Origin: Antedon mediterranea
Taxonomy: Eukaryota > Animalia > Echinodermata
Length of the DNA: 64,000 nucleotides
NCBI RefSeq assembly: GCF_964355755.1
Contig: NC_092673.1
Coordinates: 18,535,648 to 18,599,647, forward strand
Direction of reading: 5' to 3'
Below the pieces are notes generated by a model. The model ran no database searches and was not told the origin of the DNA. It saw only the letters and a program-made list of their open reading frames with translations. The translations under genes were made by a program, and so were the position numbers. Shown here piece after piece: positions 1,744-56,515 of the stretch (the first letter of the stretch is position 1; each line of letters starts with the position of its first letter).

Positions 1744-2295
1744 ATTCTAAAACCTACAACAATTTCCGAATTCTAAAAGCTAGTCTTGGTAAATGCTTTG
1801 TCGGTGAAAGATACCGTTGGATAAGGTTCCTACTATTTGATAAGTTGGATGTCAGTGAAATTACAAATATAGATTTCAATGGATATGACTTACTCAATCA
1901 CCTTGAACACAAAGGTTTAATCTCACCAACTAATGTTAACTTGCTGTTAGAGATTACAAATACATCTGAAATCCAACAGGCCAAAGATCTTGTATCAAAG
2001 TATATGAGAAACAACAACATTCAGAATAGACATACTGGTAAAACCAAGTTGTCGTCTTACAGAAAGCGACTGTTCAAGGCCCTGAAACAAGTTGACCCAG
2101 ATGCATTCAGTAACATTATTTCTTTCTACAAGTTAAGAAAATATAGCTTCTCCAATGTTTGGGATGCAGTTCTCCATCTGGAGAAAGAGGAAGAATTAGC
2201 AGATGATCCAGACAAAATACAAATATTTGCAGATCGTCTTGGAGGAAAAGCAAGAAAAATACTGTTGGAGTATAATGTTGTTACAGAATTTGAAG
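1744..2295 (+). CDS. Gene 1 internal exon: tandem death-effector-domain (DED)-like module #1 (phase 1-1, 552 nt)
   Basis: Acceptor ttttatttgcag|, donor GAAG|gtaatt. Open frame SKTYNNFRILKASL...FLLFDKL...DLLNHLEHKGLISPTNVNLLLEI...LSSYRKRLFKAL...WDAVLHLEK resembles the DED1-DED2 pattern of caspase-8/cFLIP prodomains. Confidence 0.8.
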
Positions 2296-2379
2296 GTAAT
2301 TGTAATGTAACTATTCACATCTTTCATTTGTTTTAAAATTTTATATGATGTTAATTTAGTTTTTAAAAAAAAACATGAA

Positions 2380-2765
2380 AAATATTCCAATTGAACAGTC
2401 AAATGAGTTAATGAGTTTCCTATTTTTACATGCGCTGATAATTGGTTGTACATCAAATATATGACGTCATATATATTATTTACGCCTATTCTTCTTAATT
2501 TTAATAATATAAAATTATGATTTATGCTGTCAAAGGCATGTTTGAGATCAACGAAGCAACACAATATTCTACCCTTTTTTTTACTTAAATATTGTTGAAT
2601 TATGCTGTTAAGAATGAAAATATTATTTAATGTGCGTAATCTCTTGCGAAAACCTGATTTTTCTTGATAAATAATGTTATTGTTTTCAGTATGGTTAGTC
2701 ATTCTAGTGTTAAGGATGTTTAAAAATATTTTGGCAAGAATTGGAATTAGAGAAATGCCCCTATA
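2380..2765 (-). mobile_element. Degenerate non-LTR retrotransposon RT fragment
   Basis: Minus-strand translation SGFRK..RTLNNIFILNSIIQQYLSKKKGRILCCFVDLKHAFDSINH gives LINE RT motifs. The same fragment with the same junction occurs at ~57297-57670. Confidence 0.8.
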
Positions 2766-3869
2766 TTAAATACTAGGCTAGGCCATGGAGGAACCCTCCA
2801 TGGCTAGGCTTACCAAATATTTATTTTGTTTCCAAATTTAGCACCAGCTGAACCACTGTTTCAATAGAAAAAAAAAATAGTCCTTGGCTGTACTGCTAAT
2901 AACTAATTGTACTGTATATTCAGTACATTGGGTGGAGTTCTAAACACCAAGCCCTTCCAAGTCCCACAAAGTATAACTAAGCTCTTACCAAGTGTATAAA
3001 GTGTATATTTTACAAAATATTTAAATTATACAAGCATGCAGAGTGTTAATAGGATTTTAATCAATAAATAAATTTAGAGCAATTATGACACATTGTACAT
3101 TCTAGGCTGATGGATTATTTAAATTTTTTTATTATTATTATTTTACAAAAGTAAAGACATGCATTCACTTTATGTCCACTGCCTCCGCAGGAAAAGTATA
3201 TTATTTATTAAGTTTGGTTTTGCTCTTGTCAGCATCATAATGTTATCAGACAATACATTTTCCTTACTAAATCTTTTTGTTGCGGTTCTTCAATTCTTCT
3301 TCGATTTAGTGTGAATGTCATTTACTCCTGTACTATTCGGTGAGGTTGAATATTTTAAAGCATGAATTTATTCCATACATATGAGCCTAAAAGAGCATAA
3401 AAATGACTGTTAAAAATAGGATATTAGTAAGCTGTCTCCTAAGGCGTTGTTGCATATCATTCCACTCTTAAACTATATTCTGTAATTGATTCATCATACA
3501 CTTCATATAACAAGGTAAGTTTAATATATACAGCCTGATGTAGTATGCCTCTTTACCTTTATCTGGAGTGCCACGCATGACGAGCTGCAGGCTCTGATCA
3601 TCAATGTGGATTACAAATTTCTGAGTACGCTTTCGAGTTGGGCGCATCGTCTGTTGGTGTTGCCTTGCCAGTTATTGTGTCTGTCAATTTCAATCCGGCC
3701 AGATGGGCTAGTAGAAAATGAGTGGACCATAATTCATAATGTTCTGCTTCCCCGTCAAAATTCATTCATTCATTCATTCTGCTTTTATTCAATATTTCTC
3801 TTTGCAGTATTTTATTTTATTTTATTTTATTTTTATTTATTCAATCAAAACCAACAGCGATAAATACCG

Positions 3870-4369: not shown

Positions 4370-6915
4370 TACTTATTATTATTATTATTGTTGTGTTTAT
4401 TTTGGTTTATTAATTAGTCTACACAGTGCTGGGAAACATGAGTTGTTGAATCTTTTAGTATTGCCATATATTTCACTTTGCTTCTTAGCATTCCTAAGTA
4501 TCCTGCCACACGTTTCGCCTCTCAAGTTAGGGACGATTTTGTTAAGATTTTTAGCAAAATCAAGAAGAATATCTTCTCTTCTTTGATCTAAAAATTTAAG
4601 ATTAAGTAGTTTAATTGCTTGATCATAGGATGCATATTTTTGTCCGAGAATTATTCTACATGCGCGTTTCTGTATAGATTCAAGCTCCATGGATTGTGCT
4701 ATGGTTAAGGCAGAGTGCTATACCGGACACGCATATTCAGTTACAGGTCTTATGTGGCTAATATACATTTGACGCAGATGGTTACAAGGCATTCCAAATC
4801 TTTTTAAACATGTCAACATATGTAATCTCTTACTGGCTCTATTAACAACATCGTGGATATGCATATTCCATTTCAGATCATTAGTGATCTGAATCCCAAG
4901 TAACTTTAAGCATTCAACATTGGTTATTTTTATATTATTTATCGTAAATGATTTAACAGTGGGTTGAGATTTGGCAAAAGAAATGTTCATAAAGTTAGTT
5001 TTTTCAATATTAATTATCATATTATTGTCTTTGGTCCATTGTGATAGTTCGTTTAATTGATCTTGAACATTAGGCGGGGTTTTCTTGTTGTGAACTTCAC
5101 ATATTGACAAATCATCTACATACTTCCACCGATTTGGGAAGTCTCTAAGCGAATTGTTAACCATTACTTGGAAAATTAAGGGACCCAGTTTCGTCCCCTG
5201 AGGAACTCCGCAAGTTATTCCTTGCCAGTTTGAAAAACCGCCATTGAGTTTCACTCTCTGTTTACGTTCGCTCAGAAAATCACAAATCCACGGCATCAAT
5301 TCAGGTTGAACTCCAATATCAATTAACTTCTTGACAGCGATTGTATGATCAATTAGGTCAAACGCTTTACGAAAATCAACTGCAATAACCGTTGCTTCGT
5401 GTCCAGGTTTATCAAGACCTTGAAGTAAATAGTGTAACATGCTAGTAAGATAGTGACTTGTAGACGCTCCTGTGCGATTTCCAAATTGCATTTCATCTAA
5501 TTTAGGCGCGATCTTGGGTTTTATCCATGACGAGACAAAGTGTTCTAGCATGCGTACAAAAATTGGTGTAATGGATATGGGTCTGATTTGATTTAAGTTA
5601 ACCGGTCCTTTCATTTTAGGAAGTGGGGTTATGGTCGCCTCTTTCCACTTGCGCGGGACTATGCCTTGCGAGAGTGATGCGTTGTAGATGTCAACTAACG
5701 GTGATGCAATTTCAAATGCGAATTCTTTGATGACGCGAGGCGGTAGATCAACCGGGGCAACTGATTTGTTGCAGTTTATTTTCTGAAGCTGATGATACAC
5801 CTGCCAGAAGTTGAGTGTCGGTGCATAGCCACAAGGAAGGTATGATGGTAGACTATTAGTTTGTAGGGGTTCAATCTTCTGGCATATATTCGCTAGGTAG
5901 TTATTTATTAGTTCGCAAATTTTAAGCGGATCGGTTTCTTCAGTTTCTAGATTCAACACCGATTTCTTTTTATTTGTACCGCATATTTGGTTAACTTTTT
6001 GGAACCACTGCTTTGCGTTAGTGTTTTGCAGATTGTTAACTTCGTATTTGTAGTATTTAATCTTTGCTTGTTTGATTTCCCAAATTACTTGGTTTCTAAG
6101 TGTACGGAAATGGCGGGACATTCTTCCATATTTATGAAAGCTAATTTGTCTCTCCTTACAAAGTCCTTTTATTTTTGGTGTGATCCATGGTTTGTCATTT
6201 GAATGAACTTTAATTCTGCGCTTTGGAAAACAACGTTCGTATGCCAGACATAATGTTGATTCGAAAATATTTACTTTTTCATCAAGGTCGTCGGTTTCCA
6301 GTATTTCATGCCAATCTTGTGATGTTATCCATTGACCAAATCTATTGCAAGCAGATTCGCTAAAAGGCCAGAAAGACTTAATAACATTGCGGCCCTTAAT
6401 GCAGACGAATCCAGGTTTTGGTTTCCATAAAATCGAATTATGGTCACTACGACCAAAGGGTGCATGAACAACCGGTTCTTCATAATGTTGATAAGTTAGT
6501 TATAAGCAAGTCCAGAATATTACCACTGTTGTCCCTAGTTGAAGTTTTGACAACTTGTCGAAGACCAGTTGACGAGCAAAATTGTTTAACTTTCGCGCGG
6601 GCTTCGTTAAAATCACCGCTAATGAGAATCGCCGCTGACGGTGATGATGTTCTAATGCTTTCAACGGATTCTCTTAAATAACGAAGAAGTGTTGTTTGTG
6701 TACTAACTGGTTGTCCAGGGCTGTAATAAATAATACACAAATGTAAGGATGACATGATCCGTGGCGTTTTTGGTAGCGATACTCTAATCCACATACCTTC
6801 CAGAACATCTGGAATAGGAATAGGATTGATTGTGCGAGCTTTGATAGTATCCTTAATTAGTGCAGCTACGCCACCCCCTATACGATCACTCCGTCCACTA
6901 CTAAAACAAGAGTTA
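4370..6915 (-). mobile_element. 5'-truncated CR1/L2-group LINE (APE endonuclease + RT), inactivated by stops
   Basis: APE motifs GDFN, ILDLLITN and SDH (~6440-6800). RT motifs VDFRKAFD, GVPQGTKLGP and KYVDD (ORF 4718-6121). Premature stops at 4718 and 6480. (TAA)n tail near 4370-4390. Confidence 0.9.
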
Positions 6916-7146
6916 AAAAATAAAGTCGCTTAGAGCTTGTGATGCTGGGCCCATAACCTGTTGTATCCAGCTCGGCCATTTTAGGTTAGGTCCTAAGGAC
7001 ACCAACACTCAATTGAAATTAATTGCAAAAATAGTATTTCTATGCTATGTACGCTATGTGCACTAAAGTGTGTGTACAGTGCAAACAATTTTGTTATGCT
7101 CAAAATTAAAGTCTGCGAAATTGATTTTGAGCATTTTAACACACCA

Positions 7147-9743: not shown

Positions 9744-9806
9744 GCAACAGTGAGAAGGACAAGAATGAGACTACCTCTTCAAGTCAACAATGGCAACCAA
9801 GTGAAG
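9744..9806 (+). CDS. Gene 1 small linker exon (63 nt, phase 1-1): NSEKDKNETTSSSQQWQPSE
   Basis: ttttatag| ... GAAG|gtaaat. Open and frame-preserving between the flanking DED exons. Confidence 0.65.
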
Positions 9807-10383: not shown

Positions 10384-10911
10384 ATTTCTCAGAGGATGAT
10401 TTTAAACAGTTGATTGTAGACTTTGCACAATGGTTTGATCAACATGGACTCCTTAACAGGCTACAAGTTCTATTCATCGAAATGGTAGATGACTTTGAAG
10501 CAGTGAGAAGGGTTACCAGTACACGTGACCTGTTAGCACTTTCAATTGCAAGTGGGCTAATAAGTCAAACAAATCTGTCTGTACTGTATGATGCAATAAA
10601 AGTAACTGAACAATTTGGCTTTCAGTCGGTCATTAAAGAAAAGCTTCCTGCTTTCAAGAATATCAAGAAGCGTAAGGTAGCATCATTTTCACCACACACA
10701 AAACAGATTTTTAATTTGGGAAAAAGTCTTAGTGATTCAGATAAAGAAACTCTAGATGGACGATACAACTTCCCTGTTTTTAAGAAGTATGAAAACAGCT
10801 GGAGTCTGATATTAGATTTTGAACCTCGAGGGTTGCTGAGTGAAGACAAACTAGAAGAAGTTAAGGAGGTTCTTAATAGAGGTAATGTTGGAACATCCGG
10901 TTCAAATCCAG
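10384..10911 (+). CDS. Gene 1 internal exon: tandem DED-like module #2 (divergent subtype, 528 nt, phase 1-1)
   Basis: Acceptor tttctttatccatag|, donor CCAG|gtatgt. Frame DFKQLIVDFAQWF...DLLALSIASGLISQTNLSVLYD...FSPHTKQIFNLGKSLSDSD...WSLILDFEPRGLL. A possible alternative donor lies at 10881. Confidence 0.75.
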
Positions 10912-11555: not shown

Positions 11556-11600
11556 ATAAAGAGGAGTCAATTGTAGACTCGAAAGGTGAACCAAACTCAG
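11556..11600 (+). CDS. Gene 1 small linker exon (45 nt, phase 1-1): KEESIVDSKGEPNS
   Basis: ttttcattctgcag| ... TCAG|gtatgc. Open and frame-preserving. Confidence 0.65.
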
Positions 11601-12541: not shown

Positions 12542-12586
12542 TAAAAGGGGTTTAGGAAATCGGTCGCGTTTAATTTTGTACTTTAG

Positions 12587-12856
12587 TATATTAAGACAAA
12601 CAAAGTTGAGAATGCTAGCGATATACAGCCATTGTCACCAGTTCGAAAACGGCTTTTTAAAGCCTTTAACAAGTTCAGAAAGAGGATATGGCAAAAGAGA
12701 TTGCTTACTACGAATTGAGAAAATTTGGCTTCCAAAATATTTGGGATGTGGTATTCAAATTAGAGAGAATCGGAGCATTAGAAGATGAACCAAGTAAAAT
12801 AGAGAACTTTGCACTTCGTCTTAATCGACGTGCAAAGGATATACTACTTGATAGAG
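12587..12856 (+). pseudogene. Broken tandem-DED exon (second half only, 1-nt frameshift)
   Basis: YIKTNKVENASDIQPLSPVRKRLFKAF/QVQKEDMAKEIAYYELRKFGFQNIWDVVFKLERIGALEDEPSKIENFALRLNRRAKDILLDR then G|gtac. It aligns by eye with the 3' half of exon 1744-2295. Frameshift near 12668; the 5' half is missing. Confidence 0.8.
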
Positions 12857-13986
12857 GTACTTAAATTAATTTTGTTTAAATATTACTTTATTAAAGAAAT
12901 AATAAATACTAATTTGTAAATATAAAATAACAATAATTGTTAACAAGCATGCCATAAAAGGATTATCTTCTGCTTTGTCATGTTTTGTTTAGTGACTTTT
13001 TACTGAATAAAAAAAAATAAAAATAAAATAATAGATCAAATAACCATTTTTATTTTGTATGGTAGGGATAAAAAGAAAAAGCCTGAAAATTACGAATATG
13101 TCATTGTGATTATGATTTATTGATTAATTATTTACTTAATTCATCATATTTCAAGAGTGTTAGCTGATTATGGGCCATCAACAAGACAAAACGACAAACA
13201 AAAACAAAGAATTATAAAAATTAAAATAAAGATATGAACAAGATGATAATGACAAAGAAGTTTGTGTTAATGAGAATGATATTACTCTAATATTAATAAT
13301 TAGTATCATATTTTAACACAAAGAATATAATGCTGATTATTAAGACAAACATAAAGTGTGTAGTTTTGTTGTAGTTGTTTCTAAATCTGATTATAATATA
13401 GAAAGTTATTATAATGTTTCACAAATCTATCTGAAAACAATGATTTCAACAATAAATATAGCATAGCATAGTTAAATGTAGACAGTGAACAATTTTATTC
13501 CCTGGTAGTAGTGTGTTCTCTGTTTTGGCCCTCCTCAGCACTCCACATTTTGCTGAAACAAATAAAAATATAAATTTACATCATTGTGTGAACAGGTGCC
13601 ATGTTAAAATATATTAAATATAAATTAGACAAATTTCATATATATCTTGTTTTTAAAATAGACTTATATATATATTATATAAAAATCATAGATAAAATCT
13701 CATTGATAAGATGATGAGGGAGGGTACCAATGCCTATTATTGTAGATAAAGGTTATATATAATAATATGATTGTTATCATGATGATGATCAAGATATGAT
13801 AATGACACTCGGGCTATATTCAGACATAGCCTTACCAGCCTTTGTAACCTACACCAGTATAAAAATATAGAAATTATTATTATATGGTAGCATTATGAAC
13901 ATTAACCATTTTTGCCAAGTTGTGTCTTTTAATATTTCTTTTTATGAAAAATATGTGTTAAATATTTTGTATGTTACATTTTTTAG

Positions 13987-14064
13987 ATTTACCAAGTTTT
14001 GTTAGTGAACGGTTTGAGAAACTAATGGTTGAAGAACAGAAAACAAAGCTTAAACCAGTGATTG
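13987..14064 (+). CDS. Gene 1 small linker exon (78 nt, phase 1-1): LPSFVSERFEKLMVEEQKTKLKPVI
   Basis: ttttttag| ... ATTG|gtaagt (consensus donor). Open and frame-preserving. Confidence 0.7.
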
Positions 14065-14188: not shown

Positions 14189-14881
14189 TGTAATATAACG
14201 ATATACTGTTATATTTAAGAAATCGACCTCTGTATCGGAATTTAAATAGGTTCACAAACTTGACCCAGAAAGTCCGGAGGAGAGTTTGTCCAGATGTTTT
14301 AATGACCATTTAGTTTATAATAGAATCCCTAAAGAAAACACTTAGCTTAACTTTGCGACCGTTCCCATCATAAAACAATTAGATACTGACAGTTTTAAGC
14401 AGAGATTCGACAGGGCCAATTCATCATTGTAACCTCCCCAGATAAGATCAATCATTCCCACTTAAACACCCCTGGATCAACTTAGGACCAATCGTTACCC
14501 TCACAGATGACGTAATGACATTATGCAAATGAACTGAGCCAATATACTCCCAAGTTTCAGAAGGGCCCAGACACACCTTACAGCCACCTCACGGAGCACA
14601 CACCTTACAGCCACCTCACGGAGCACACACCTTACAGCCACCTCACGGAGCACACACCTTACAGCCACCTCACGGAGCACACACCTCACAGCCACTTCTT
14701 CAGAAGCAGACCTACACACTTCACACCTCACTGACAGCATCATTGAACGTCCGTTCCTTATCTATACTTATAGTTGTATATTGTACTGAAGTATTATACT
14801 GAATAAATAATATATGTGTTACGACAGTCAAGCGAGTTAGAGTCTTTCATTAGTACCTCAACAACCCAACATTATATTACA
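14189..14881 (+). repeat. Gypsy 5' LTR (693 bp), including a 27-bp minisatellite CACACCTTACAGCCACCTCACGGAGCA (about 4.5 copies)
   Basis: Direct repeat of 23330-24024. Confidence 0.95.
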
Positions 14882-15614
14882 TGGTGGAAGACCCAAATTT
14901 CATAAGGAACGGAGTGAGAAAACAAGAAATAAACACAAGACACGAAGACGAAGACGAAGACAAAAATAACCATATTTGTTTGAAAGGAGAAAACCAGAAA
15001 TTTACTTTGACTCAAAAGACAAGCTGAAATTATATTTGAATGAGATCGAGACAAGCAGAAATTTGATCAAATTATTACCATTGGATGAAGACAAAGAAGA
15101 TAATCGAGGAAGACACAAAAGACAAGCTGAAATTATATTTGAATGAGATCGAGACAAGCAGAAATTTTATCAAATTATAACCATTGGATAAAGACAAAGA
15201 AGATAATCTAGGAAGACCCAAGCAGAATCAAAACAGAAGCAAGCGGACAAGAACTATTTCGTTTGAACACTTTCAACTTCACGCCGTTTTTTTTCGATCG
15301 TTTTTTTTAACATTTATTTTTTTTGACCATTTTGAACATTGATGAACACCTTTCGCATTTTTTTTTAATTCGTTGTTTGAAAGTTGAACATTGATGAGCA
15401 CTTTAACATTTCTTTAATTCGTTGTTTGAACATTTAAACATTTTTGAACACTTTTTGCATTCCTTTAATTCATTTTTAATTGGATCCGAAGCATTTGGGG
15501 TAAGTCAAAACCATTTTGATTTTGATTTGTAACCTTGATTGAAAAGTGAGAGTTTACATATATATATACACTAAATTGTTTTTAATATTTGATTAATAAT
15601 TAATATTATAAAGT

Positions 15615-16580
15615 ATGGTCGACGTTGTTGATAACGAAGTAATTTTAAATGAGCCCGTCAATCCTCATCCCGTGCCCCACCTAAGACAAACCGATTTCCT
15701 TCCCAAAAGATATGACGGTTCCATAACCGATCACGACCAATGTAGTGCACACTACTTATCGTTTACCGACTACCTTGAGGCCCACACTTTAGAAAACCCT
15801 GTAAACAATGCCCAATTAATTAATGTAATAAGTATTTTCAAACGTAGCCTTCAGGGCCAAGCTAGACTCTGGATTGAGGGAAAGCAGTTCGATTCACTAG
15901 AATCCTTAAAAACCCAATTCATCAACAGGTTTAGTAAAAACAAATCAATCTATGCGCACATAAGAGAATACGATTCAATTACATACACCACTGGCGACAA
16001 CGCCGAAAAGCACTTAACCAAAATCAAACAAGCAGCAGACAGAATTGGATACGCTGACCAGCAGATAAAGAATAAATTTATTTCGACCCTTCCACCAAAA
16101 TGTAGAGCAGCTGTAGCCATGTCCACCCCAATCGATGCCACTATTGAAAATATCGTAAATAGCACACAAAATTACCTTGACCTTTCCGTAGATGATGCCA
16201 CACGGGAGGTTTCATTCAACATCAATAAGGAAACAGATAGGCCTAATAGTCTCGAATCGCTCCAACATGAGATAAATTCTCTCAAGTTAGACATGGCCAC
16301 AACAAAACGATCCCTTAATGATGATACTCGACGCTCACGTTCCCCCACCCGAAATTATATCCCAAGACGAAACCGAAGCCCAAGCCCATACAAACCCCGA
16401 TTCCAGACCCCACCGACCCCAAGATATAGACAACCTCCCCCAACCTGTTATTACTGCGGGAAACCAGGCCACATAGCAAGGCACTGCCGACAACAAAACC
16501 GTTCTTACGGAAACTATCCCCCGCCATACCCATACCAACAGTCAAACAATTACTACCCTAGCCACCAGCAGGATTTTTAA
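15615..16580 (+). CDS. gag: Gypsy Gag
   Basis: 321-aa ORF with CCHC zinc knuckle CYYCGKPGHIARHC. Confidence 0.9.
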   Translation: MVDVVDNEVILNEPVNPHPVPHLRQTDFLPKRYDGSITDHDQCSAHYLSFTDYLEAHTLENPVNNAQLINVISIFKRSLQGQARLWIEGKQFDSLESLKTQFINRFSKNKSIYAHIREYDSITYTTGDNAEKHLTKIKQAADRIGYADQQIKNKFISTLPPKCRAAVAMSTPIDATIENIVNSTQNYLDLSVDDATREVSFNINKETDRPNSLESLQHEINSLKLDMATTKRSLNDDTRRSRSPTRNYIPRRNRSPSPYKPRFQTPPTPRYRQPPPTCYYCGKPGHIARHCRQQNRSYGNYPPPYPYQQSNNYYPSHQQDF

Positions 16581-25359: not shown

Positions 25360-25678
25360 GTAATTTTTTATTTATCAAAATATGTTTAAAAAATTATAAA
25401 TTGAAAAAGAATTTGTTAAAATTGGAAACAGAGAAAATATGGTAAACATTACAATTTGAGAAAATCAGAGAAAGTGATCAATCACACCGCCATTAAAATG
25501 TTTTTGGTTATTATTTTTCCAGTTATAGTTGTTTTTAAACATTTTTTTATTTGATTAGATTGATTCCTGATATAACAAAAAATCAGAGTTAGAAAGATTT
25601 GTACTTTATTAAACAGTCTAGTGTTTTAAACAGTTTTTACATCTTTGAATATTTTTATGTATTCTGTATGCACTTCAG

Positions 25679-41805: not shown

Positions 41806-43357
41806 GACCTATAGTCGTGTTTACTATGTACATATGTATTTAGTTTTTATAATATTTCATTTACCTTTTTATTAAGTGATTGTTAAACCCGTTTGGTTTA
41901 AAGGGGGGAGTGTAAAGTATTGAAATATAATAGAACGCCCTCTATAATTTTGTGGATGTTGCTCCTAGGTCTAATATATAGGGGTGTGACCAAATTCCAG
42001 GAGAGATGAATTTTGGGTTTGAACAGCGACACTTCTCCAACTCGACACTTTTCTAATTTTTTGTTGTGACAAATTGTTTATTTGGAACTTGTTTGTAACT
42101 TTTACAACTTGTTTATAACTTTGAAAGCTTGGTTAATTGTATGAAACATTTATGTGTAATTTGGCAACATTTGTGATTTCGACAACCTTGTTACTTTTTA
42201 TATGTAAGTTGATTCCGATTTTTTTTTTTATAGAATACTTTATGTTTATAATGTTGAATAATCGATTATGACGTTATTGGGCTCGTGAGAGTCTGTATCA
42301 TTATCGATATACATTAGTTGTTTTAATCATATATATTATCGTTCATACCGTAGGTAGGCTATAAACTATAACTATGCATTATATACCGTATATATATTTC
42401 TTTCCTTTGTTGATATTAGTGATTGTTTTAAATTCTCCAGTTGCGATAAGGATTTAATATGTCTAATTAGGATGTTTTTTATGATGTTATTGATACATTA
42501 TAGCAGTTGTATGCTATTTAGAATAACCTACTGTAGTTTGGAAATCTATACATCATTTGTATTAAGGTATAACGATTATAAAGTGTAATGCCTGAGTGGT
42601 GCCTCATTTCGATTCATTGGAGGGCAATTTAAGTTTTGGTTGCCAATAGCAACTGGATAGTTGAGAGGAGATGGGTTATAAATTATAAACAAGGATCGAA
42701 TTATTTATATTGCAGCTGTTTTGAACTGGGAGTAGTTCAAGTGCATCTGTTTACTGTGATTGGTATATTTGAGGCGTCAAAGTCAAGTAGGTTTATATTT
42801 TGAACCCCATGGCTCGTTTTAACTTGTAGTGGCAATTGATAAGGAATACGTTTGTTACTTGTTGCTTTAATGGTAACATTGTTGTGATCGCTATTCTATT
42901 GATATGTTTATATTAATTTTAATTGGTACACTTATACACCTTTTAATTTAACTCATTATAATATCGCTGTAATTTCTTGAATAACGTTGTATTCTGTAAC
43001 ACATTATAGAAAGTAATGTAGTTTCCTTTATCTTCTTTTAGTCATCAGAACAGAACGGAAGATCGGTCTATTGTAAATAAATTGTAGATATTGTATTTGC
43101 TGGATCAGTGTCTTTTGTTATCTGCGTCGATTGACCACACACGCCACCAAGCGAACTCGCGTAGTACGCTACACCTACTAGTTATATTATTCATATTAAC
43201 TGATACTTACTCTTCATTTACCGTAAAGTTCAGTTTTAATGAAATATATAATATAAATTGGCTTCGTAACAATTAATTAGTGTTGAAAAGGTTAGTTTTT
43301 TGGTGATAGGTGAAAATGACATGTAACTTCGTAATCAATTTATTTTTTTTTGTATAA

Positions 43358-43718
43358 AGGCCCAATTACACTATGACGATAACGACGGACGATAAATATA
43401 TAGCATGCATTTTTTTTACATAAACCAAAAGAAATTAGAAAGGTTTTCGTTCTAGACCTATAGGATAATCATTTATGCTGTCTTTGATAAAAATAATGTT
43501 TTTCAAATTCCAATCAAATGACGTCATGATAAATAAAAACAATAAAATCGCTGTATTGTCACGATATTATTGGTCTTACTAATCATGACGTCATTTGATT
43601 GGACGTGTGAAAATATAATTTTCATCAAAGGAATTGTTTATATTTCTTTTGGTTTATGTATTAAAAATGCACATTTGTCTATTTATCGTCGATCGTTATC
43701 GTCCTAGTGTATGGGCCT
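43358..43718. mobile_element. Harbinger-like MITE carried inside the Helentron-like element (second copy at 53324-53684)
   Basis: TIRs AGGCCCAATTACACTATGACGATAACGA / TCGTTATCGTCCTAGTGTATGGGCCT in a TAA/TA context. Confidence 0.7.
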
Positions 43719-44016
43719 TATGCTGTAAATGTTCAATTAATTGATCATTCCGATTTTATTAGTTGGACTCTTGCACAGTTGCTGTCTAATCGTTGTTGTG
43801 TAATATCATTTCGAACCATATTAAAATCATAAAGAGATTCATATTCCTTAACATGTGGCTGTGCATGGAAGTCCGGTCTACAAAAACTCGGGCCCGGGAT
43901 CATTGTTATTGGGCCTGAAAGTGTTGGTGAATTCATAATTATACTTAATATTATATCTATAAAGAGTCGTTATCCAAAGAGTCGTTATCCAATCGAGTTC
44001 GAACAATACCATGAAA

Positions 44017-44088
44017 GCCCCAGTGGTCTAATGGTTAGGACATCTGCATATCAAGCAGGCGGTCCGAGTTCGAGTCTCGGTTGGGGCG
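44017..44088 (+). tRNA. tRNA-like cloverleaf, anticodon ATC, copy 1 (probably repeat-borne)
   Basis: Acceptor GCCCCAG/TTGGGGC, D arm GTC..GAC, anticodon stem TCTGC/GCAGG with loop AT-ATC-AA, T arm CCGAG-TTCGAGT-CTCGG, then TTTTT 2 nt downstream. Confidence 0.55.
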
Positions 44089-44380
44089 ACTTTTTCTCAT
44101 TCTCACAGATTTCCTCATCTTTATCGTTTCAAATTAATTAATTAAATTTCAGTATATCCCCGGGCGGTTTAGAATTAATGTTCTTTGCCTCTTGTGTTTA
44201 TATATATAAAAGTATCTCTTCGGAGATCCCGCCTCGTGAATAAAAATACTGAAAGATGAGGGCGTATCAATTTGATCTCTGTTGCGCGTGCGTACAACTG
44301 AGGACTAGTGCTGTTCCGCCGTACCACGCCGAGAATGTTAAAGAGTCGTTATCCAATCAAGTTCGAACAATACCATGAAA

Positions 44381-44452
44381 GCCCCAGTGGTCTAATGGTT
44401 AGGACATCTGCATATCAAGCAGGCTGTCCGAGTTCGAGTCTCGGTTGGGGCG
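44381..44452 (+). tRNA. tRNA-like cloverleaf, anticodon ATC, copy 2
   Basis: Same as copy 1 except one variable-loop base; period 364 bp. Confidence 0.55.
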
Positions 44453-44564
44453 ACTTTTTCTCATTCTCACAGATTTCCTCATCTTTATCGTTTCAAATTA
44501 ATTAATTAAATTTCAGTATATCACCGGGCGGTTTAGAATTAATGTTCTTTGCCTCTTGTGTGTG

Positions 44565-44658
<94 letters not shown>
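44565..44658. repeat. (TA)n microsatellite
   Basis: Directly visible. Confidence 0.95.
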
Positions 44659-44662
<4 letters not shown>

Positions 44663-46289
44663 TGTTATTATACAATTGAAAGCAAAACCCGTTAAATCTC
44701 AAATCATTAGGACTAGAAATTTGGCTTATCAATCAAATAAATACTTTCGTTCAAAATGAAACTCCAACCTCTCTAAAAGATTGAACTCGAAAACGGACCG
44801 TTTTTTTTAATTGGGTATGTTGAAACATTTCAATATTCATTTAAAAAAGTACATTAATTATGGTATTGATCAGTGGCTATAGAGGCATAAAAACCCTTGG
44901 TCAATATCATGTAAAATGCACTGTGGAAGGGTCATTATTAAGACTGCAAAATTGGGCTTATCAACAACAAAACATTTTATTATTAGACGTGATAACATCA
45001 AGAATAATCAGTATAATTATTAATATAGCCACTGTTACTAGTTTTATTCTACATGCTAAAGTAAATAAAAATCCACTAGAAAACAAACAAGTCTGAATGT
45101 TATGCTTATTACTATTAGCCATGTTATGTTTGTTACTGTAGGCAGGGAAGAGTTAAATTGTAATTTAACTCTTCCCTGCTGTAGGCCTATGATTGTTTGC
45201 AATGTCCACATATTATTTCCGTGGGCATATCCATAGTGTATCACTCACAAAAAAGACGTGTGAGGTTCTTTCTTTAGATTTTGAAGAATGATTTGTGTTA
45301 CAGGTTAACACATGAGTCAAATGCTCAAGATATCGGCTAACGCCATGAATCTGACCGTTTCATTAAATTGGGTGTGATTAGGCCTAAACATATAATAATT
45401 TATTAAAAAGGTACAATAAAAACAAATGCATCAGAGGCGTTAAGAACCCACGGTCAATATCATGTCAAATGTATATATGGTATAAGCACTGTGGAAGGGG
45501 TCATTATTATTAAACTGGAAATTCGGCTTATCAACAAATAAATACTTTCGTTTAAAATGTAAAATAAGACTGCAAAATTGGGCTTATCAACAAATAAATA
45601 CTTTCGTTCAAAATGTAAAATAAGACTGCACAATTGGGCTTATCAACAAATAAAATACTTTTTTTTCAAAATGTAAAATTAAGACTGGAAAATTGGGCTT
45701 ATAAACAAATAAATACTTTTTTTCAAAATATAAGAAAACATTTTTTAAATATAATCCTTAAGCTCTGTCTATACTATCAAACTAAATATGATGTGCCCAT
45801 ATTATATAGACATGACGATGTCCACTACGATATTCGGGCATATCACTACCATATTTGGGCACACTTTTTTTGTTAAACTAGTTGGGACAGTGTAGACACA
45901 GAACTATGTGATCGAAACATAAGTCGGAATTGGACTGACGCGATTGATTTAATTGGGTATTTTTATTAATGTAGGCTAATGATTCATTAAAAACTATAAT
46001 ACCGATACGCGTTTGGTATTGATCAATGGTGCAAAAAACCCTGAGAAATAATGGTATAACGCGATTTGGTGATAGCTTAGCAATAATACAACCCATATAC
46101 TATTATTATAAATACCTATTACAAATCCATTCATATAACTTTTCATCGCGAACCGAAAATGTATAAATGTTATTCTACAGACAGTAATTATATATTCAAA
46201 AGCCATATTATTATTATTATCAATACCTAAATGCGATAGTAATAACCACATAAACATAAATTATTCCCAATACAAGTTTGTGCGTTTAA

Positions 46290-47189
46290 AGCTCAGTTTC
46301 CACGATCAGTTTTTTTCTTCCGTCTTCCAAAGGGACACTGTATTGATTGATGGAAAGTGCCTGTTTCCAGTCACCTTTAGGGTTAAATCTATTATTTTAA
46401 CTGCTCCCTTGTGTATAAAAGAGAGAAAATAGTGACTTATAAGTTTTAGTGCATGTCCTATTATTAATGAAACTGACACCAGTTTTTTACACCAATAGCC
46501 AATCAGATGGGCAGGAATTTGGCTTGGTAGGGATCAACATCTGAATATTGTAGCAGAGAGATATAATATAGTTCACTATATATCTTTTGATTATAGATAC
46601 CTGAAACAATTTTAGTTAGGAGTTGAATGGAATACAAAGATTATAAAGTGTTATTAAAAGTCATAATATATTATATATTTATATATAATTATAGATAAAA
46701 TTATTATATTTTTCTATGTCTTCTACTTCCAGTTCCTTTATTAAATCATGGTATGCTCCATGGGATTTTCGCCGCTGTATCCATGGTTTCACCCACACAC
46801 TGCGTTTCTTTTGCAATCGTTTTTTTCTTCTGCTTGCGTTTACCATATACAAAATGATCAAAACTTTCGAAAGTAACACTAAATCCATTTCGATTTGTAT
46901 TAAGAATATACAATATCACAATTGAATTCTAAATGATAAATAGAATAGCAAAGCAGAGAGCAGAGAAAGTATTTACACAATGGTTGACAAGGTCAATCCT
47001 TGAATACCTACAATATACAAAGATTGTCCCTAAATTGCAAGCTTATGACATTCTATTCAAAAAGTAGGTCATTAGTGACCAAGTGAAGAAATGACTGTGG
47101 GATTGCAACACTCTTCTCCTGATGTCCTATCAATCAATACAAGTCCCTTTGGAAGACGGAAGAACAAACCCGATGGTGGGAACTGAGCT
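46290..47189 (-). mobile_element. Internally deleted PIF/Harbinger transposon with transposase N-terminal remnant (46679-46888)
   Basis: TIRs AGCTCAGTTTCCACGATC / GATGGTGGGAACTGAGCT and TSD TAA, with the empty site at ~55608. Peptide RSVWVKPWIQRRKSHGAYHDLIKELEVED..YNNF is typical of the N-terminus of Harbinger/HARBI1-like transposases. Confidence 0.85.
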
Positions 47190-49939
47190 TAATTCTAGAA
47201 AGAAACGACTGTGCTGACAGGCCAATGACATAAATCACAAGTAAAGTCCCAATTGTTCACTTGCGTTTTGATTGGCCGACCTATTATATTAGATTAATGA
47301 AGACTGTCCAGTCAAAAAGTTACGCTGCGTTTTTTGTAAGAAATATTTCTTGTTTACAATGATTTTCAAAGAGCACATATTCACAAACATCTTGCAACCT
47401 GTAAAATTGAAAACAAATATTATATACATTAGGCCTAAATTAACATTCATCCCTTATTATACGTAACAAATATTGACCAGAGCAAAAGCGTACAGTATTA
47501 GCGACACTCCATACCGGTTACCAGATGTTGATTTTTAACAGAACCAAAATAAAACGCGATCGATTTTACCATATTATTGAACACAAGACTATCGGGCCCT
47601 GCGCTGAGACGATCGGGCCCTGCGAATGAGACGATTGGGACCAACATGGTTCCTAACACATGAGACGATCAGGCGCGGCCAACGCTGAAGACGATCGGGA
47701 CCACATTTTTTGGCCTGATCGTCTTGTGTGCGATCGTCCGTGGTCTCAATTGTCTAATAACCGTACTAGGCTACTCTAGGAGGAGAGGGCATAGTAAGTA
47801 GATATGGCTATTAGGCCTAATAAAACTACAGATTATTGGAGTAGGAGGCCTAAGGTGTGCTATGGTCTATTAGTATTATTAGGCTAGAAGGCCCCCGCTT
47901 CCCAGGAAGACCAGGCCGGCACTGATCCACTACTGCGTTTGAAATCGGTCGCGTTTCCAATCGGTCGCATTTTTAATCGGTCGCGTATATGGCATGCCAA
48001 ATGTGCCTTATGTATATTTTCCTTTGCTTTTTCTTCCAGGGTCATACCGTATGCGCGATATGATTCTAGCAAGACAATGATGATTAGGTTTAAAAAAGGT
48101 GGTACAAAACTTTTTTTTTTTTGCAAATCAGAGGCTTCCATTGGTACACCAAAGAGACGTAAATGAATTTATAAAAAATGCAATATATATGTTATATACC
48201 CAATGTATCGTTAATAATTATTGTTCTGAAAAAATGATAAATAATAATGATATACATTCCACAAATTTATAAATTAACATATTTCTCGTTTTCGGTGGGA
48301 AATTTAACTGAAAATATTGGAATCTAATAATAAATAACCAGGCCATTTACTTGGGTGTTTATATTGTTAAGTTGGAATAAATTCCAGTTGATAAAGAGGT
48401 TGTTAACAATAACTAGATATAAATATCAATCAATATGTTAATACAAAATAGACAAAATCTAAAAATAAATCACTTTGGGAATTGACAATTTAATAATTAT
48501 CGTCGTCAAATTGACCTATTAATATTTTTTAACATTTTAATTTTTCCTTTTCTCTTCATGTCAAGCAATTTTTGTTATTTTCTTCATCATGTCTGTTTAA
48601 TAGTGAGTTCTGTACTTTCAATTAGTTTAGTATGTCAACTTAGTCTAAGTTCTAGAATGTGTTTTGACATAATGTTAGTAAAAAGATAAATATATTGCCA
48701 CACATATGGCGTAATATAAAAATCAACATAAGGAATACAGCAACATTTACATTTTTACCAATATTTCACTTTCAGCCATCACCATCCTCGGCTTTCTATG
48801 GCGCCATCTAGAATAGGATTAGTTGGAAACTGGAATTAGAAATCTCTGTGATCTTGGTGATGGGAATCACTGAAATATTCGTCAAAAAAATGTAGTGTTT
48901 TTTACTACACCAACAACATAAGAACCTAATGAATATAATACTTGGTAATATCATGGAGGAAATAACTAGGATTACATGACACTACACAGTGTGCCTTGCT
49001 TTTGTCTGAATGGTTATTGATTGAATCAACTTACATGGACAATATCCCGATGCAAATTGTGTAGTAAAATGATTTCATATGCTCTAGTTAACATGTTCTT
49101 GACAAAAGGTTGTTCATTGTTAATATTTGTATAGAAACTGAATAACACTGTCCATATTTTTCATTAAATAGGCTAGTCATGCAAGACTGATTTAGGAAGT
49201 CAGGTGATGCACAGAACGCGGCAAAGAGGGTGTTGACACTTTGCATAACAACAAACACCTTTTAGGCAGGTAGCGTCCATTGATGTAGAGTTGTGCATTT
49301 TCTTTGTGGACCAGTGGATGGAGGATCGTTTCTAGACATGCATAACTTTCAGGTGTAATTTTATGCTTACCAATAATTCGGTTATTCAGATTCTGTTGTT
49401 TGGTGTAAGTTAATATGATTTTTTTTTCCAGATAATAATACTGGTTAAATTCAACCAAAAACCCATTGATTATTAATTTTTGTTTTTGATCCAATTTTTT
49501 GTCAAAGTGGATATGTGACATTAAAATGAATGTTTTGAAGTTATATACTTTTGTAGTAAAAAAATGATTTCACATAACCAAAACCCATTCTCTTGATCTT
49601 TTTTCAGGTTTTGATCAAATTGAATAACTATTATGTGAAGTTTATTAATTTTTCTGTATTAAAACAATGTGCATTATGTTTTTACAAATTTGTTAATGTA
49701 TAAACTTTTAAGTTTGATATAGTTTTACAAATTTACCACATTTAGTTGTCTGCTGCAGATAAATATTTTGAATAATATACTGTATTTGTATTTTTGGTTA
49801 TACATTCTGTACAATAATACTGTACAACTAATTTAGTTTGTATGAGATGATTGGTGGAAGTATTTGTGACAAAAATAGTAGTATCTGGAATTAATGTAAT
49901 TCAATTTATTCTTTTCAGACGACAGCTTAATACAGTGAA

Positions 49940-50474
49940 ATGGCAGAGACTGAAACTAACGATAGGTTCTTACAATTGAAAGTTGATCTTAATAGATGCT
50001 ATGACAGTAAAAGATACTACAAGCAAAAAATAAGATTCCTCCTATCTGATTACTTACCTTTTGATTTACTTGAAAAGTCAACTACTACACTTGTTTTATT
50101 GTATAACATCGAACGCCATAACAGAGGTTTAATCACACCTTCTAATGTTGATCTTCTCTTTGAGATTACGCAAATATTACAAGTAAAGGAGGCAGAAGAT
50201 CTTGTCAACCAGTATATGGAGGAAAACAATGTTCAGATTACAAATCATAGAACGTTGTCCAGATATCGAATGAAGATGTTCAGAGCATTGGAAGAAGTTT
50301 CAACTGATGTTAGACATCTTACTGTTTATTACAAACTGTACAAAAACTTTCAAAATGTATGGGATTTAGTACTTAAACTTGAGATGGCCAACTATCTAGC
50401 AGATGAACCAGACAAATTGGGGAAATTTGCACGTTTACTCAATCCAACAGCAAAAGCAATCTTACTTGATTACG
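49940..50474 (+). CDS. Gene 2 first coding exon: N-terminal tandem DED-like module (exon starts 49919)
   Basis: Acceptor ttattcttttcag| at 49918, ATG in GAAATGG context, donor TACG|gtatgt (phase 1). MAETETNDRFLQLKVDL...IRFLLSD...GLITPSNVDLLFEI...LSRYRMKMFRAL...VWDLVLKLE...LADEPDKL is a paralog of the gene 1 modules. Confidence 0.8.
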
Positions 50475-50512
50475 GTATGTAATTTTTTTTTAACTTGTGT
50501 TTCTGACTGTTA

Positions 50513-52399: not shown

Positions 52400-52441
52400 T
52401 TATTAGTGTAAACTGTAACATGTACAGTACTATGTATTATG

Positions 52442-55400
52442 TTTTCGCGCCGCGGCTCTAGCCAGCTATGTCCCAGGAGGACACATTCATTAATAAGCTG
52501 TTTCATAGCGGTAGCTTTAGTATCTAAGGCTGACAGTTTTGTGAATTTGGAAACTCGACTATAATTTATAGGTAGCTGCTGGACCCAAAAAACGTCTGGG
52601 AGAAGAGAGTCTATATGAAAGCCTTTGCTGATAATACAGTATTATTGAGATGTAGACGGAAATCTGTAAAATCTTGATCAATAAATAATAACTTCGTTTT
52701 TGCTGTCAACCAGGCTGGTATTATAATAAGTCACTGTCAAATAATCATTCTATAATGGTCAAAACTTTATTTTGGCTCTGTCAACATAAAGGAAGGTATT
52801 TACAATGACTTTCTTTGACTGTCAATCTAGGCCAATGTTATAATAATACGCCGTCAGATATTAAATCATTGAAACAGTCCTCGTAAATTTTTTGTTGGTT
52901 ATCAGATGCCGTGGGGGGTCCAATCAATTATTCAGAAGGTGAACAATCAGTCTAGCAGCAGCAGATTTTTAGGAACGCCTGCTCCATTAATTAATCCAGA
53001 AAAAGGTTTGTACATTATCTATTTGTTTATTAGCCTTCTCCTAACACAATTGTATTTTCTTTAAAAAAAAGGTTTTATAAGTGGTTTCAACATTTATGAT
53101 AGTAATGTCACAGATCTGTGTCTGGACTCAAGTTCATAGACCTACTAGTTATATTATTCATATTAACTGATACTTAATCTTCATTTACCGTAAAGTTCAG
53201 TTTTAATGAAATATATAATATAAATTGGCTTCGTAACAATTAATTAGTTTTGAAAAGGTTAGTTTTTTGGTGATAGGTAAAAATGACATGTAACTTCGTA
53301 ATCAATTTATTTTTTTTGTATAAAGGCCCAATTACACTATGACGATAACGACGGACGATAAATATATAGCATGCATTTTTTTTACATAAACCAAAAGAAA
53401 TTAGAAAGGTTTTCGTTCTAGACCTATAGGATAATCATTTATGCTGTCTTTGATAAAAATAATGTTTTTCAAATTCCAATCAAATGACGTCATGATAAAT
53501 AAAAACAATATAATCGCTGTATTGTCACGATATTATTGGTCTTACTAATCATGACGTCATTTGATTGGACGTGTGAAAATATAATTTTCATCAAAGGAAT
53601 TGTTTATATTTCTTTTGGTTTATGTATTAAAAATGCACATTTGTCTATTTATCGTTGATCGTTATCGTCCTAGTGTATGGGCCTTATGCTGTAAATGTTC
53701 AATTAATTGATCATTCCGATTTTATTAGTTGGACTCTTTCACAGTTGCTGTCTAATCGTTGTTGTGTAATATCATTTCGAACCATATTAAAATCATAAAG
53801 AGATTCATATTCCTTAACATGTGGCTGTGCATGGAAGTCTGGTCTACACAAACTCGGCCCCGGGCCTGAAAGTGTTGGTGAATTCATAATTATACTTAAT
53901 ATTATATTTATATATATATATATATATATATCATTATATTATTATACAATTGAAAGCAAAACCCGTTGAATCTCAAATCATTAGGACTAGAAATTTGGCT
54001 TATCAATCAAATAAATACTTTCGTTCAAAATGAAACTCCAACCTCTCTAATCAAAAGATTGAACTCGAAAACGGACCGTTTTTTTTTAATTGGGTATGTT
54101 GAAACATTTCAATATTCATTTAAAAAAGTACATTATTATGGTATTGATCAGTGGCTATAGAGGCGTAAAAACCCTCGGTCAATATCATGTAAAATGCACT
54201 GTGGAAGGGTCATTATTAAGACTGCAAAATTGGGCTTATCAACAAATAAATACTTTCGTTCAAAATGTAAAATCAAGGCTGAAAAATTGGGCTTATCAGC
54301 AACAAAATATTTTATTATTAGACGCGATAACATCTCAAGGATAATCAGTATAATTATTAATATAGCCACTGTTACTAGTTTTATTCTACATGCTAAAGTA
54401 AATAAAAATCCACTAGAAAACAAACAAGTCTGAATGTTATGCTTATTAGCCATGTTATGTTTGTTACTGTAGGCCTATGATTGTTTGCAATGTCCACATA
54501 TTATTTCCGTGGGCATATCCATAGTGTATCACTCACAAAAAAGACGTGTGAGGTTCTTTCTTTAGATTTTGAAGAATGATTTGTGTTACAGGTTGACACA
54601 AGAGTCAAATGCTCAAGATATCGGCTAACGCCATGGGACCCTTGGCTTATCAATGAATAATAAATACAGTACTACTTTCGTTCAATTGAAATCGGAATCT
54701 GACCGTTTCATTAAATTGGGTTTGATTAGGCCTAAACATATAATAATTTATTAAAAAGGTACAATAAAAACAAATGCATCAGAGGCGTAAAGAACCCACG
54801 GTCAATATCATGTAAAATGTATATGGTATAAGCACTGTGGAAGGGGTCATTATTATTAAACTGGAAAATTCGGCTTATCAACAAATAAATACTTTCGTTT
54901 AAAATGTAAAATAAAACTGCACAATTGGGCTTATCAACAAATAAAATCCTTTTTTTTTTCAAAATGTAAAATTAAGACTGGAAAATTGGGCTTATAAACA
55001 AATAAATACTTTTTTTAAAAATGTAAAATTAAGACTGGAAAATTGGGCTTATAAACAAATAAATACTTCCGTTCAAAATGTAAGAAAACATTTTTTAAAT
55101 ATAATCCTTAAGCTCTGTCTATACTATCAAACTAAATATGATGTCATATCACTACGATAATCGGGCATATCACTACCATATTTGGGCACATCACACTTTT
55201 TTTGTTAAACTAGTTGGGACAGTGTAGACACAGAACTATGTGATCGAAACATAAGTCGGAATTGGACTGACGCGATTGATTTAATTGGGTATTTTTATTA
55301 ATGTAATGATTCATTAAAAACTATAATACCGATACGCGTTTGGTATTGATCAATGGTGCAAAAAACCCTGAGAAATAATGTTATAACGCGATTTGGTGAT

Positions 55401-55793
55401 AGCTTAGCAATAATACAACCCATATACTATTATTATAAATACCTATTACAAATCCATTCATATAACTTTTCATCGCGAACCGAAAATGTATAAATGTTAT
55501 TCTACAGACAGTAATTATATATTCAAAAGCCATATTATTATTATTATCAATACCTAAATGCGATAGTAATAACCACATACATTATTCCCAATACAAATTT
55601 GTGCGTTTAATTCTACAGTAGAAAGAAACGACTGTGCTGACAGGCCAATGACAGAAATCACAAGTAAAGTCCCAATTGTTCACTTGCGTTTTGATTGGCC
55701 GACCTATTATATTAGATTAATGAAGACTGTTCTTACAACAACTGTCCAGTCAAAAAGTTACGCGGCGTTTTTTGTAAGAAATATTTCTTGTTT
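52442..55793 (+). mobile_element. ~3.35-kb non-autonomous Helentron-like element, copy B (un-nested)
   Basis: TTTTCGCGCCGCG ... CGCGGCGTTTTTTGT-AAGAAATATTTCTT-GTTT. Contains a MITE (53324-53684) and ~57-bp satellite-like repeats (AAAATTGGGCTTATCAACAAATAAATACT). Confidence 0.75.
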
Positions 55794-56119
55794 AACTATA
55801 GTATTCTGTACTTAAATAAATCAAATTTCCTTTATTTTGAGGAGTACTGTATAGATCAGTACAGGCAGTTCTGTAAAACCATTCAATTAAAAAGTAAATA
55901 TATATAGTAGATATATGTATTATTGTTTGCTGCAAAAGCAGGCCTTTGGGATTTTGATCAAAACAAGTTCAATAACAAAATGTTTATGTTAGGAGTTAAT
56001 TATCCATGCAAAGTCCCATAGATTATATACACTCTGTATCTTACTCTATGTAGGGCTATAATCCATACCCAACTTATTGCAAGGGTTAAAATTAATTACA
56101 TTTTTTGTTGTTGACATCT

Positions 56120-56515
56120 TGGTCATTCAGTATATGAAGGATAACAATGTTCCAAACACAGATGATCGTTTATCAACATATCGAAGACAACTGTTTCAGA
56201 CTTTGAGACAAAGTAATCATAACCGACTTGGAAAAAGTTGTTGCTTTCTATAAAATTGAAGAATATGGTTTCAACCATATTTGGGATGTAGTTTTGAAAC
56301 TGGAGTAGGACCACCTTTTGAATGATAATCCAGAAGAATGGAGGAGGTTGTTGATAAACGATCATCTGTGTTTGGAACATTGTTATCCTTCATATACTGA
56401 ATGACCAGATCTTCAGCACGCTTCAAACCTGTTAGTGTTACTTTTGTAATATCTAACAGTAGACTGACATTCTGTGGTGTAATTCTGCCTTTAACTTCGA
56501 GTACATTAAATACAG
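56120..56515. pseudogene. Scrambled tandem-DED exon: 3' half on + strand, 5' half inverted downstream
   Basis: + strand: VIQYMKDNNVPNTDDRLSTYRRQLFQTLRQ/...LEKVVAFYKIEEYGFNHIWDVVLKLE*. - strand from ~56513: VFNVLEVKGRITPQNVSLLLDITKV..GLKRAEDLVIQYMKDNNVPNTDDRLST. The shared 59 bp form an inverted repeat. Confidence 0.8.

Follow-up and report, generated by a model that had tools for sequence, protein, structure and literature searches.

Immune diversity in invertebrates is usually sought at the sensing end, in leucine-rich repeats (LRRs) and lectins. Among the closest described signalling systems, death effector domains (DEDs) dock via hydrophobic surfaces, and their RxDL motif is in some cases not the binding surface (PMC4558505, accessible text). 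Ser, Cys and Thr are residues able to start an acyl shift of the PIDD and CARD8 type, and the essential Phe-296 of CARD8 corresponds to Leu-677 of UNC5B (both from the accessible part of PMC3210808). In marine invertebrates, expansions of a DEDD2 clade combining DED and TRADD-N are on record (Kaur et al. 2021, PMC8195603, accessible part). The stretch described here (hereafter the window), 64,000 nt of AT-rich animal DNA from the crinoid Antedon mediterranea, contains six copies of a cassette encoding two DEDs in tandem. Duplication, deletion and crossover within the flanking phase-1 introns have probably carried this one-exon tandem-DED module from gene to gene, and we predict that it serves as a docking unit linking immune-type sensors to DED caspases. 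The evidence bearing directly on this reading comprises the fold, the crinoid family, the annotated partner diversity, a spliced ZU5-UPA-linker-cassette gene (with cassette c4), a stand-alone cassette gene (c5), a missing cassette and the discordant histories of the modules.

The tblastn search found six tandem-DED copies, four intact (c1, c2, c4 and c5, open frames of 165-184 residues) and two broken (c3 and c6), just where a first-pass annotation had placed them. A hidden Markov model (HMM) of the family, built on 210 domains and run over six frames, agreed, with four full matches of 113-167 bits and fragments at 12587-12828 and 56101-56522. Neither search yielded a seventh copy in the window. 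Two runs provided spliced contigs, X9, which carries the organism label of the best-matching run and comes from another sample, and X8, which like X5 has another label. X9 and X8 contigs are taken as transcripts solely from exons joined at GT-AG sites, no run being recorded as RNA. The features of the window are the following, P-numbers denoting related proteins.

1744-2295, + strand: c1, intact type-A tandem-DED exon of 552 nt, phase 1-1 via a predicted downstream donor; the ancestral donor is lost.
9744-9806, + strand: linker exon L1, 63 nt, phase 1-1.
10384-10911, + strand: c2, intact type-B tandem-DED exon of 498 or 528 nt, phase 1-1.
11556-11600, + strand: linker exon L2, 45 nt, phase 1-1, predicted only.
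12572-12856, + strand: c3, dead type-A cassette, 3' half only, with a frameshift and its donor retained.
13059-13807, + strand: intron with homology to the introns on either side of c2; it has 66 bp where the first unit has 793 bp containing c2.
13987-14064, + strand: exon L3, 78 nt, phase 1-1.
14189-24024, + strand: Gypsy-type long terminal repeat (LTR) retrotransposon, with LTRs of 696 bp (99.3% identical), target duplication, Pfam matches and long gag and pol frames.
24833-25359, 25679-25816 and 26105-26243, + strand: exons of the ZU5-UPA block, 804 nt in total, phase 1-1 (Pfam ZU5, 6.8e-21).
25219-25227, + strand: HFC motif in the ZU5-UPA block.
26582-26611 and 26871-26900, + strand: linker exons L4 and L5, 30 nt each, phase 1-1, joined in X9 and X8 contigs.
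27429-27961, + strand: c4, intact tandem-DED exon of 533 nt, phase 1-0, penultimate exon of the ZU5-UPA gene.
28085-28102, + strand: coding part of the terminal exon (VLADE*), with the joint 27961-28085 in X9 and the same end in P0162.
49919-50474, + strand: c5, first coding exon, ATG at 49940 with stops ahead of it.
52572-52618, + strand: terminal exon of the c5 gene, 15 residues, with an identical copy at 34284-34330.
56116-56522, mixed strands: c6, dead, with its 3' part at 56116-56340 (+; frameshift and stop) and its 5' part at 56522-56341 (-).

The AlphaFold model of c4 (47 sequences) has 12 helices and a pLDDT of 95. All 25 Foldseek rows listed for it are DED structures of caspase-8, cFLIP or vFLIP (best TM 0.70-0.75), the match to tandem DED structures covers its whole length, and the top matches in the structure atlas are DED clusters (0.90-0.93). 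On the model, the cassette has the tandem DED fold of caspase-8/cFLIP type in a non-canonical form. The model and Foldseek thus agree with the initial identification of tandem DEDs, and Pfam DED scores (13.5-25 bits) fall below the curated cut-off of 35.9. Searched by sequence, the PDB yielded vFLIP matches that were no more than weak (E 0.5-0.9) and ranked below unrelated chains. As already remarked in the first-pass annotation, no cassette of the window has RxDL; the whole E/D-RxDL charge triad is absent from them, R.DL occurs at any position in only 5 of the 210 family domains, and RxDL is also missing at helix 6 of crinoid caspase prodomains. Helix 2 has FLL in c1 and c5 and CL in c4, and that of the second DED ends in FY or YY; these residues may correspond to the hydrophobic FL patch on helix 2 of caspase-8. 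The two halves of a cassette are barely similar in sequence, their profile comparison being insignificant (3.5% probability). c1, c4 and c5 (type A) share 34-43% identity, and c2 represents a separate, ancient type B (19-21% identity to them); the anchor motifs first described for all copies hold for the c1/c4/c5 type. We class the cassette as a tandem-DED-fold module that is neither a canonical DED nor a member of the caspase-8/FLIP family.

The module belongs to a large crinoid family. All matches of c1 are to proteins of Antedon mediterranea (11 among 1432 candidates, at 65-77% identity), and a profile of nine cassettes retrieved 226 clusters at E<=0.001 from protein databases, a number at odds with a few copies in one-to-one orthology. 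The family returned consists of the best 150 of these 226; the organism was looked up for 30 clusters, and all 30 are crinoid (21 Antedon, 9 Anneissia). Twenty-five named relatives have a cassette on the same contig as XP_071947629.1, and named Antedon cassette proteins are spread over 10 different long contigs. Two to five cassettes are present in 40 of 158 proteins. A named partner domain was found in 68 of the 113 proteins examined (mostly longer than 330 residues), in about 19 classes: NACHT (24), Roc/COR (14), ZU5 (7, one shared with COR), kinase (3), TIR (3), and caspase, TRIM-NHL, MAM and LRR-only (2 each), with single cases of RIG-I, Rel, PARP14-type, very large GTPase, HEPN, ubiquitin protease, fibrinogen, ENTH, ubiquitin and NB-ARC-TPR. 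Immune or death domains make up the overwhelming majority of the partners, and the partners are found again in two distant crinoids, which supports the proposal of an immune-type receptor or adaptor family.

As for individual relatives, P0136, P0152 and P0066 are a Rel/NF-kB-like protein and a RIG-I-like helicase, each with an N-terminal cassette, and a caspase-8-like protein with two cassettes (four DEDs). The models of P0132 (XP_071947630.1), P0127 and P0165 start with the second half of a cassette alone, like c3; P0132 is PARP14-like, and its accession comes next after that of the c5 protein. P0004, P0007, P0032 and P0164 have hydrophobic, probably membrane-spanning stretches beside the cassette (by eye), which is not so in the c4 and c5 genes.

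The first-pass annotation overlooked the ZU5-UPA exons (24833-26243), which are part of the c4 gene. ZU5-U1-U2-L4-L5-c4 are joined at GT-AG sites in X9 and X8 contigs, and X9 reaches the VLADE* exon. P0162 has the same exon order with L3 in front; its counterpart of L3 (22 of 25 residues identical) lies directly ahead of ZU5, and by this comparison L3 likely splices to ZU5 across the Gypsy element. The motif [H/S]-F-[S/C/T] is present in 10 of 10 complete ZU5 domains (a truncated N-terminal fragment, P0163, being excluded), with Ser in four, Cys in four and Thr in two at the nucleophile position; the window has HFC, and UNC5B has QLG. The motif Phe falls on residue 137 of the UNC5B chain; numbered as Cys-663, Glu-666 and Cys-670 are in the accessible part of PMC3210808, this residue is Leu-677. 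A model of P0162 matches UNC5B, the ankyrin ZU5-UPA and the NLRP1 FIIND and is good over UPA and the cassette. Judging from its sequence, the ZU5-UPA-linker-c4 gene is likely to encode a CARD8-like sensor with a DED output. We consider it fairly probable from the retained motif that the ZU5-UPA-tandem-DED protein cleaves itself; activation in the manner of CARD8, suggested by analogy, is more tentative.

The c5 gene is separate and stand-alone. c5 and the exon at 52572 together give XP_071947629.1 (P0023) at 100%, and a search for c5 among longer proteins returned no match because the gene encodes 193 residues. No caspase frame was seen in the window, and the c4 and c5 genes stop 5 and 15 residues past the cassette, respectively. 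The cassettes of the window thus belong to at least two genes.

The phases of the exons partly bear out the initial description of the cassettes and linkers as phase 1-1 units divisible by three. It holds for c1, c2 and the five linkers (63, 45, 78, 30 and 30 nt), and the ZU5-UPA block is also of phase 1-1; c4 (533 nt, phase 1-0) and c5, a first exon, are exceptions. Eleven of 12 module borders are in phase 1, with a nominal p of ~2e-5 that overstates the case because the borders are related by duplication and several are predicted. c1-L1-c2-L2-L3-ZU5-UPA-L4-L5-c4 reads as a single open chain of 892 residues. The order c1-L1-c2 agrees with P0003, P0010 and P0013; in P0010 and P0013, an L1-type linker also lies between A and B cassettes, and a paralogue contig joins an A cassette to L1. 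No RNA joint for L2 appears among the 15 of 41 joints listed, two paralogue contigs terminate at the c3 donor (12856), and the X9 depth over c1 and c2 all differs from the window at the listed sites, which indicates paralogues only. The start of the c1 gene probably lies left of the window; in P0019, the closest relative of c1, the cassette comes after a UPA domain.

Such a chain could suggest combinatorial splicing, in which one long gene would use different cassettes and linkers and so provide each animal with many receptors. Skipping would preserve the frame for seven of the chain's 10 internal exons, and among 15 isoform comparisons in RefSeq (eight related genes) six differ by in-frame pieces of 11-31 residues, the others by 1-4 residues (four), at the ends (three) or by the loss of an N-terminal cassette (two). 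However, an internal cassette was removed in none of the 15, although only four of them (three genes) could show such removal, and no exon-skipping joint of the ZU5-c4 gene is among the 15 of 17 joints listed from two runs, in contigs that drop rare forms. Skipping of c4 breaks the reading frame and c5 is a first exon, so that only two of the four intact cassettes are freely skippable, not any of them as first proposed, and the cassettes lie in at least two genes rather than in an array of alternatives. Since only constitutive joints are listed, we regard combinatorial splicing as highly improbable. Rapid diversification by positive selection, part of the same initial proposal, finds no support either: pairwise comparisons of c1, c4 and c5 give dS of 1.1-1.2, dN of 0.5-0.6 and dN/dS of ~0.5, and 9 of the 18 changed codons listed for c4 of X9 are synonymous (20 of 57 sites listed).

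The evidence favours shuffling at the DNA level, with birth and death of cassettes, as the first-pass annotation had supposed. The introns flanking c2 recur collinearly after c3 (76% over 411 nt and 73% over 136 nt); in this second unit, cassette c2 is missing between homologous introns. L2 resembles the acceptor region of ZU5 (36 of 48 positions identical, next best 27) and ends in a linker-type donor, and from this resemblance it is likely the remnant of a ZU5-UPA block deleted in frame. P0024 retains the full order cassette-linker-ZU5-UPA-cassette. The last 30 nt of c2 (10882-10911) are a paralogue of L5 without the intron (23 of 30 identical, next best in the window 20). Depending on the relative, the cassette after ZU5-UPA is of c1, c2 or c4 type. 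A single clade is rejected for the cassettes after UPA (p-AU 2e-31) and after COR (9e-83), and also for those of the window itself; on the cassette tree, partner labels cluster no more strongly than in shuffles. Among 47 cassette pairs of at least 65% identity with named partners, 17 differ in partner (four rows being one protein's repeats).

Two further comparisons point to discordant histories of neighbouring modules. In ZU5-UPA, the window, P0162 and P0032 are about equidistant, with informative sites distributed 20/22/33, whereas in the cassette the window pairs with P0162 (58/8/5; p 1.3e-10); a rate change on one branch could be part of the cause. The spliced X9 contig differs from the window at 3 of 559 bases in ZU5-UPA and at 57 of 535 in c4 (99.5% versus 89%, p 3.5e-15). 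Of these 57 c4 variants, 20 are listed; X8 shares 12 of the listed ones and X5 shares 14. This version of c4 thus predates the split of the labels, if they stand for two species. For the c4 of X9 type, two origins come into question, the exon of a paralogue or an old allele, with a chimeric contig less probable.

It is possible to read the sharing as an old balanced allele kept across species by balancing selection, as in an allorecognition or resistance gene, all the more as the shared variants often stand at a third to half of the depth in X8 and X5. An older paralogue as the source of the variants would give the same sharing, though. c4-like sequence is multi-copy, as indicated by the raised summed depth (no true copy number) and by P0162 at 90%; in X1, the summed contig depth is up to ~55 times the unique level for ZU5 and ~2-6 times for c4, values that are no copy number and were not used as one. 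Moreover, half of the listed codon changes are synonymous, and the triplet test indicates exchange among paralogues. We thus consider a balanced allele unlikely and retain exon shuffling as the explanation.

Recognisable transposons make up ~37% of the window, comprising two young LTR elements and several long interspersed nuclear elements (LINEs). The Gypsy-type element, in the predicted L3-ZU5 intron, is likely a recent insertion, possibly polymorphic. A BEL/Pao LTR element (34874-43173) has LTR pieces 99.5% identical and a 5-bp target duplication; ~370 bp of its left LTR are not present in the right one. The LINE at 4400-6929 (- strand) is spanned by a single X9 contig with 12 differences in 2495 bases and represents a young family occurring in this transcript-like run. 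Another LINE with an A-rich tail (28358-30187) is inserted in a short tandem repeat just after the stop of the ZU5-c4 gene, and both ends of the window (1-1100 and 63181-64000) carry one repeat (92%). One LINE remnant with a shared flank (85%) lies 3' of both c1 (2383-2931) and c6 (57272-57804), although c6 is more c4-like, a further hint of mosaic units. c6 itself is a rearranged copy with 59 identical bases duplicated, with the LINE remnant adjoining downstream; twin-priming retroposition was ruled out as its origin, as the inverted part sits downstream. A 93% match of 56648-56731 to the N-terminus of a Roco protein proved to be an antisense LINE and no Roco exon, and no Roc/COR sequence occurs in the window among the matches listed. 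Finally, a duplicated stretch (34154-34874 plus 43170-47356 versus 52442-55794, 84-97%) includes the terminal exon of c5. Either part of a gene was duplicated here and the cassette left behind, or a repeat gave the exon to the c5 gene.

This setting raises the question of neutral debris, namely a transposon-rich region that copies and breaks DED exons without function, with partner diversity as an annotation artefact. The transposon content, the two dead copies of six, the one related model that begins in an antisense LINE and the location of the last c5 exon in the duplicated stretch would all fit. Yet open frames and core residues are retained at dS above 1, the ZU5-c4 gene, which is collinear with P0162, shows splicing in two runs, and the partners are overwhelmingly of the immune and death classes and recur in both crinoids. 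We hold neutral debris to be very unlikely.

Several points nevertheless weigh against our explanation. RxDL is missing and both DED halves are barely alike in sequence, and dN/dS of ~0.5 between cassettes does not point to selection by pathogens. The partner diversity is taken from automatic gene models in tandem arrays, and such models can be chimeric; P0001, for one, starts in an antisense LINE. The first cassette is N-terminal in 117 of 158 proteins, where phase symmetry is not needed. The tree used 53 of 210 rows picked after a first tree, mixed two species and followed a simpler (quick) model. The mosaic transcript is a single assembled contig from a run only guessed to be RNA, and the P0162 model is poor in ZU5 (pLDDT <50 for residues 1-215). 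As for the window itself, no listed contig is close to its own c1 or c2 (15 of 41 joints), and the c1-L1-c2-L2 chain and the L3 link are predicted.

How exchange would operate follows from the borders: the cassette, the linkers and the block of three ZU5-UPA exons have borders of phase 1 in common, and unequal crossover in a repeat-rich array may thus yield new in-frame genes, and a dead cassette such as c3 could drop out harmlessly. The ZU5-UPA-tandem-DED protein would probably cleave itself at H-F/C in the manner of PIDD and CARD8, and the freed UPA-tandem-DED piece might then cluster and recruit caspases with the same module. From established DED biology, the unit would dock onto other DEDs via hydrophobic surfaces. 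As crinoid caspases, among them XP_071950579.1 and XP_033126911.1, carry the same tandem-DED unit, sensors could recruit them without a separate adaptor. The 193-residue c5 protein might be a free adaptor or a decoy similar to short cFLIP; the decoy role, argued by analogy, is plausible at best. A broader proposal is that crinoid cytosolic immune signalling has been rebuilt on one tandem-DED connector serving NLRs, RIG-I, Rel, TIR, Roco, kinases and caspases, with self-cleaving CARD8-like sensors of this cluster swapping the exon among paralogues so frequently that the wiring from sensor to output differs within species, and with old variants shared across species. We regard it as speculative and rather unlikely in this full form.

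The mobile part would here be the signalling connector, in the earliest-branching echinoderm class. Since Pfam largely misses the module, the repertoire is hidden among 'uncharacterized' proteins. The ZU5-UPA-tandem-DED arrangement with its kept motif suggests an independent sensor of CARD8 type that connects directly to DED caspases. In a single 64-kb window, exon loss, in-frame collapse, inversion and swap are each caught as a dated snapshot, which makes exon shuffling testable within populations. If cassettes are indeed swapped between neighbouring genes, they would amount to a natural toolkit with which immune signalling can be rewired.

No description of this crinoid family was found in the literature searched, mostly without subscription journals and without supplements, where gene lists could name it; the accessible text of PMC13228809 and PMC11508797 makes no mention of it. 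Compared with caspase-8, cFLIP and vFLIP, the cassette has the same twelve-helix tandem DED across its whole length, c5 has a layout like short FLIP, and crinoid caspases share the module. In contrast, the crinoid module lacks RxDL, has 15-20% identity to these proteins and is accompanied by no caspase domain in the window. It exists in hundreds of copies with many partners, whereas the accessible part of PMC4558505 lists seven DED proteins in humans. As in the FIIND-CARD of CARD8 and NLRP1 and the ZU5-UPA-death domain of PIDD, ZU5-UPA is followed by a death-fold domain, with the cleavage motif at an equivalent place (PMC3210808, accessible part). Unlike in these proteins, the output in the window is a tandem DED, the nucleophile is Ser, Cys or Thr, ZU5 is nearer to that of UNC5B, the gene is a multi-copy mosaic and cleavage is predicted.

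The DEDD2-clade expansions, as far as the accessible text of PMC8195603 covers them, are similar in the lineage-specific growth of a constant death-fold unit near retrotransposons and in its fusion to TRIM, ubiquitin, HEPN, RIG-I-like receptor (RLR), ZU5-UPA and PARP/Macro effectors. They differ in that the constant unit here is a tandem DED, and the local evidence favours intronic deletion and crossover, not mainly retroposition. TRADD-N was reported neither in Pfam scans of 110 proteins (99 at strict thresholds) nor in the genes of the window. Death-fold grafting, including DED-NACHT and DED-RLR, is also known from the innate receptors of amphioxus (PMC2575513) and the RIG-I-like receptors of lophotrochozoans (PMC8998645). 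There, in the accessible parts of both papers, DED is one of several grafted domains, with few new combinations in sea urchin, whereas one single-exon tandem module dominates in crinoids, another echinoderm class. The ROCO genes of brown algae (accessible parts of PMC11378527 and PMC3341825) likewise combine Roco genes, exon-sized modules and shuffling in a candidate immune family. However, their ligand-binding repeats are shuffled, alternatively spliced and under diversifying selection, whereas in crinoids the signalling module is mobile, with neither skipping nor positive selection seen. Lineage-specific expansions of death-fold connectors are thus already known; what is new is a non-canonical, single-exon tandem DED as the connector.

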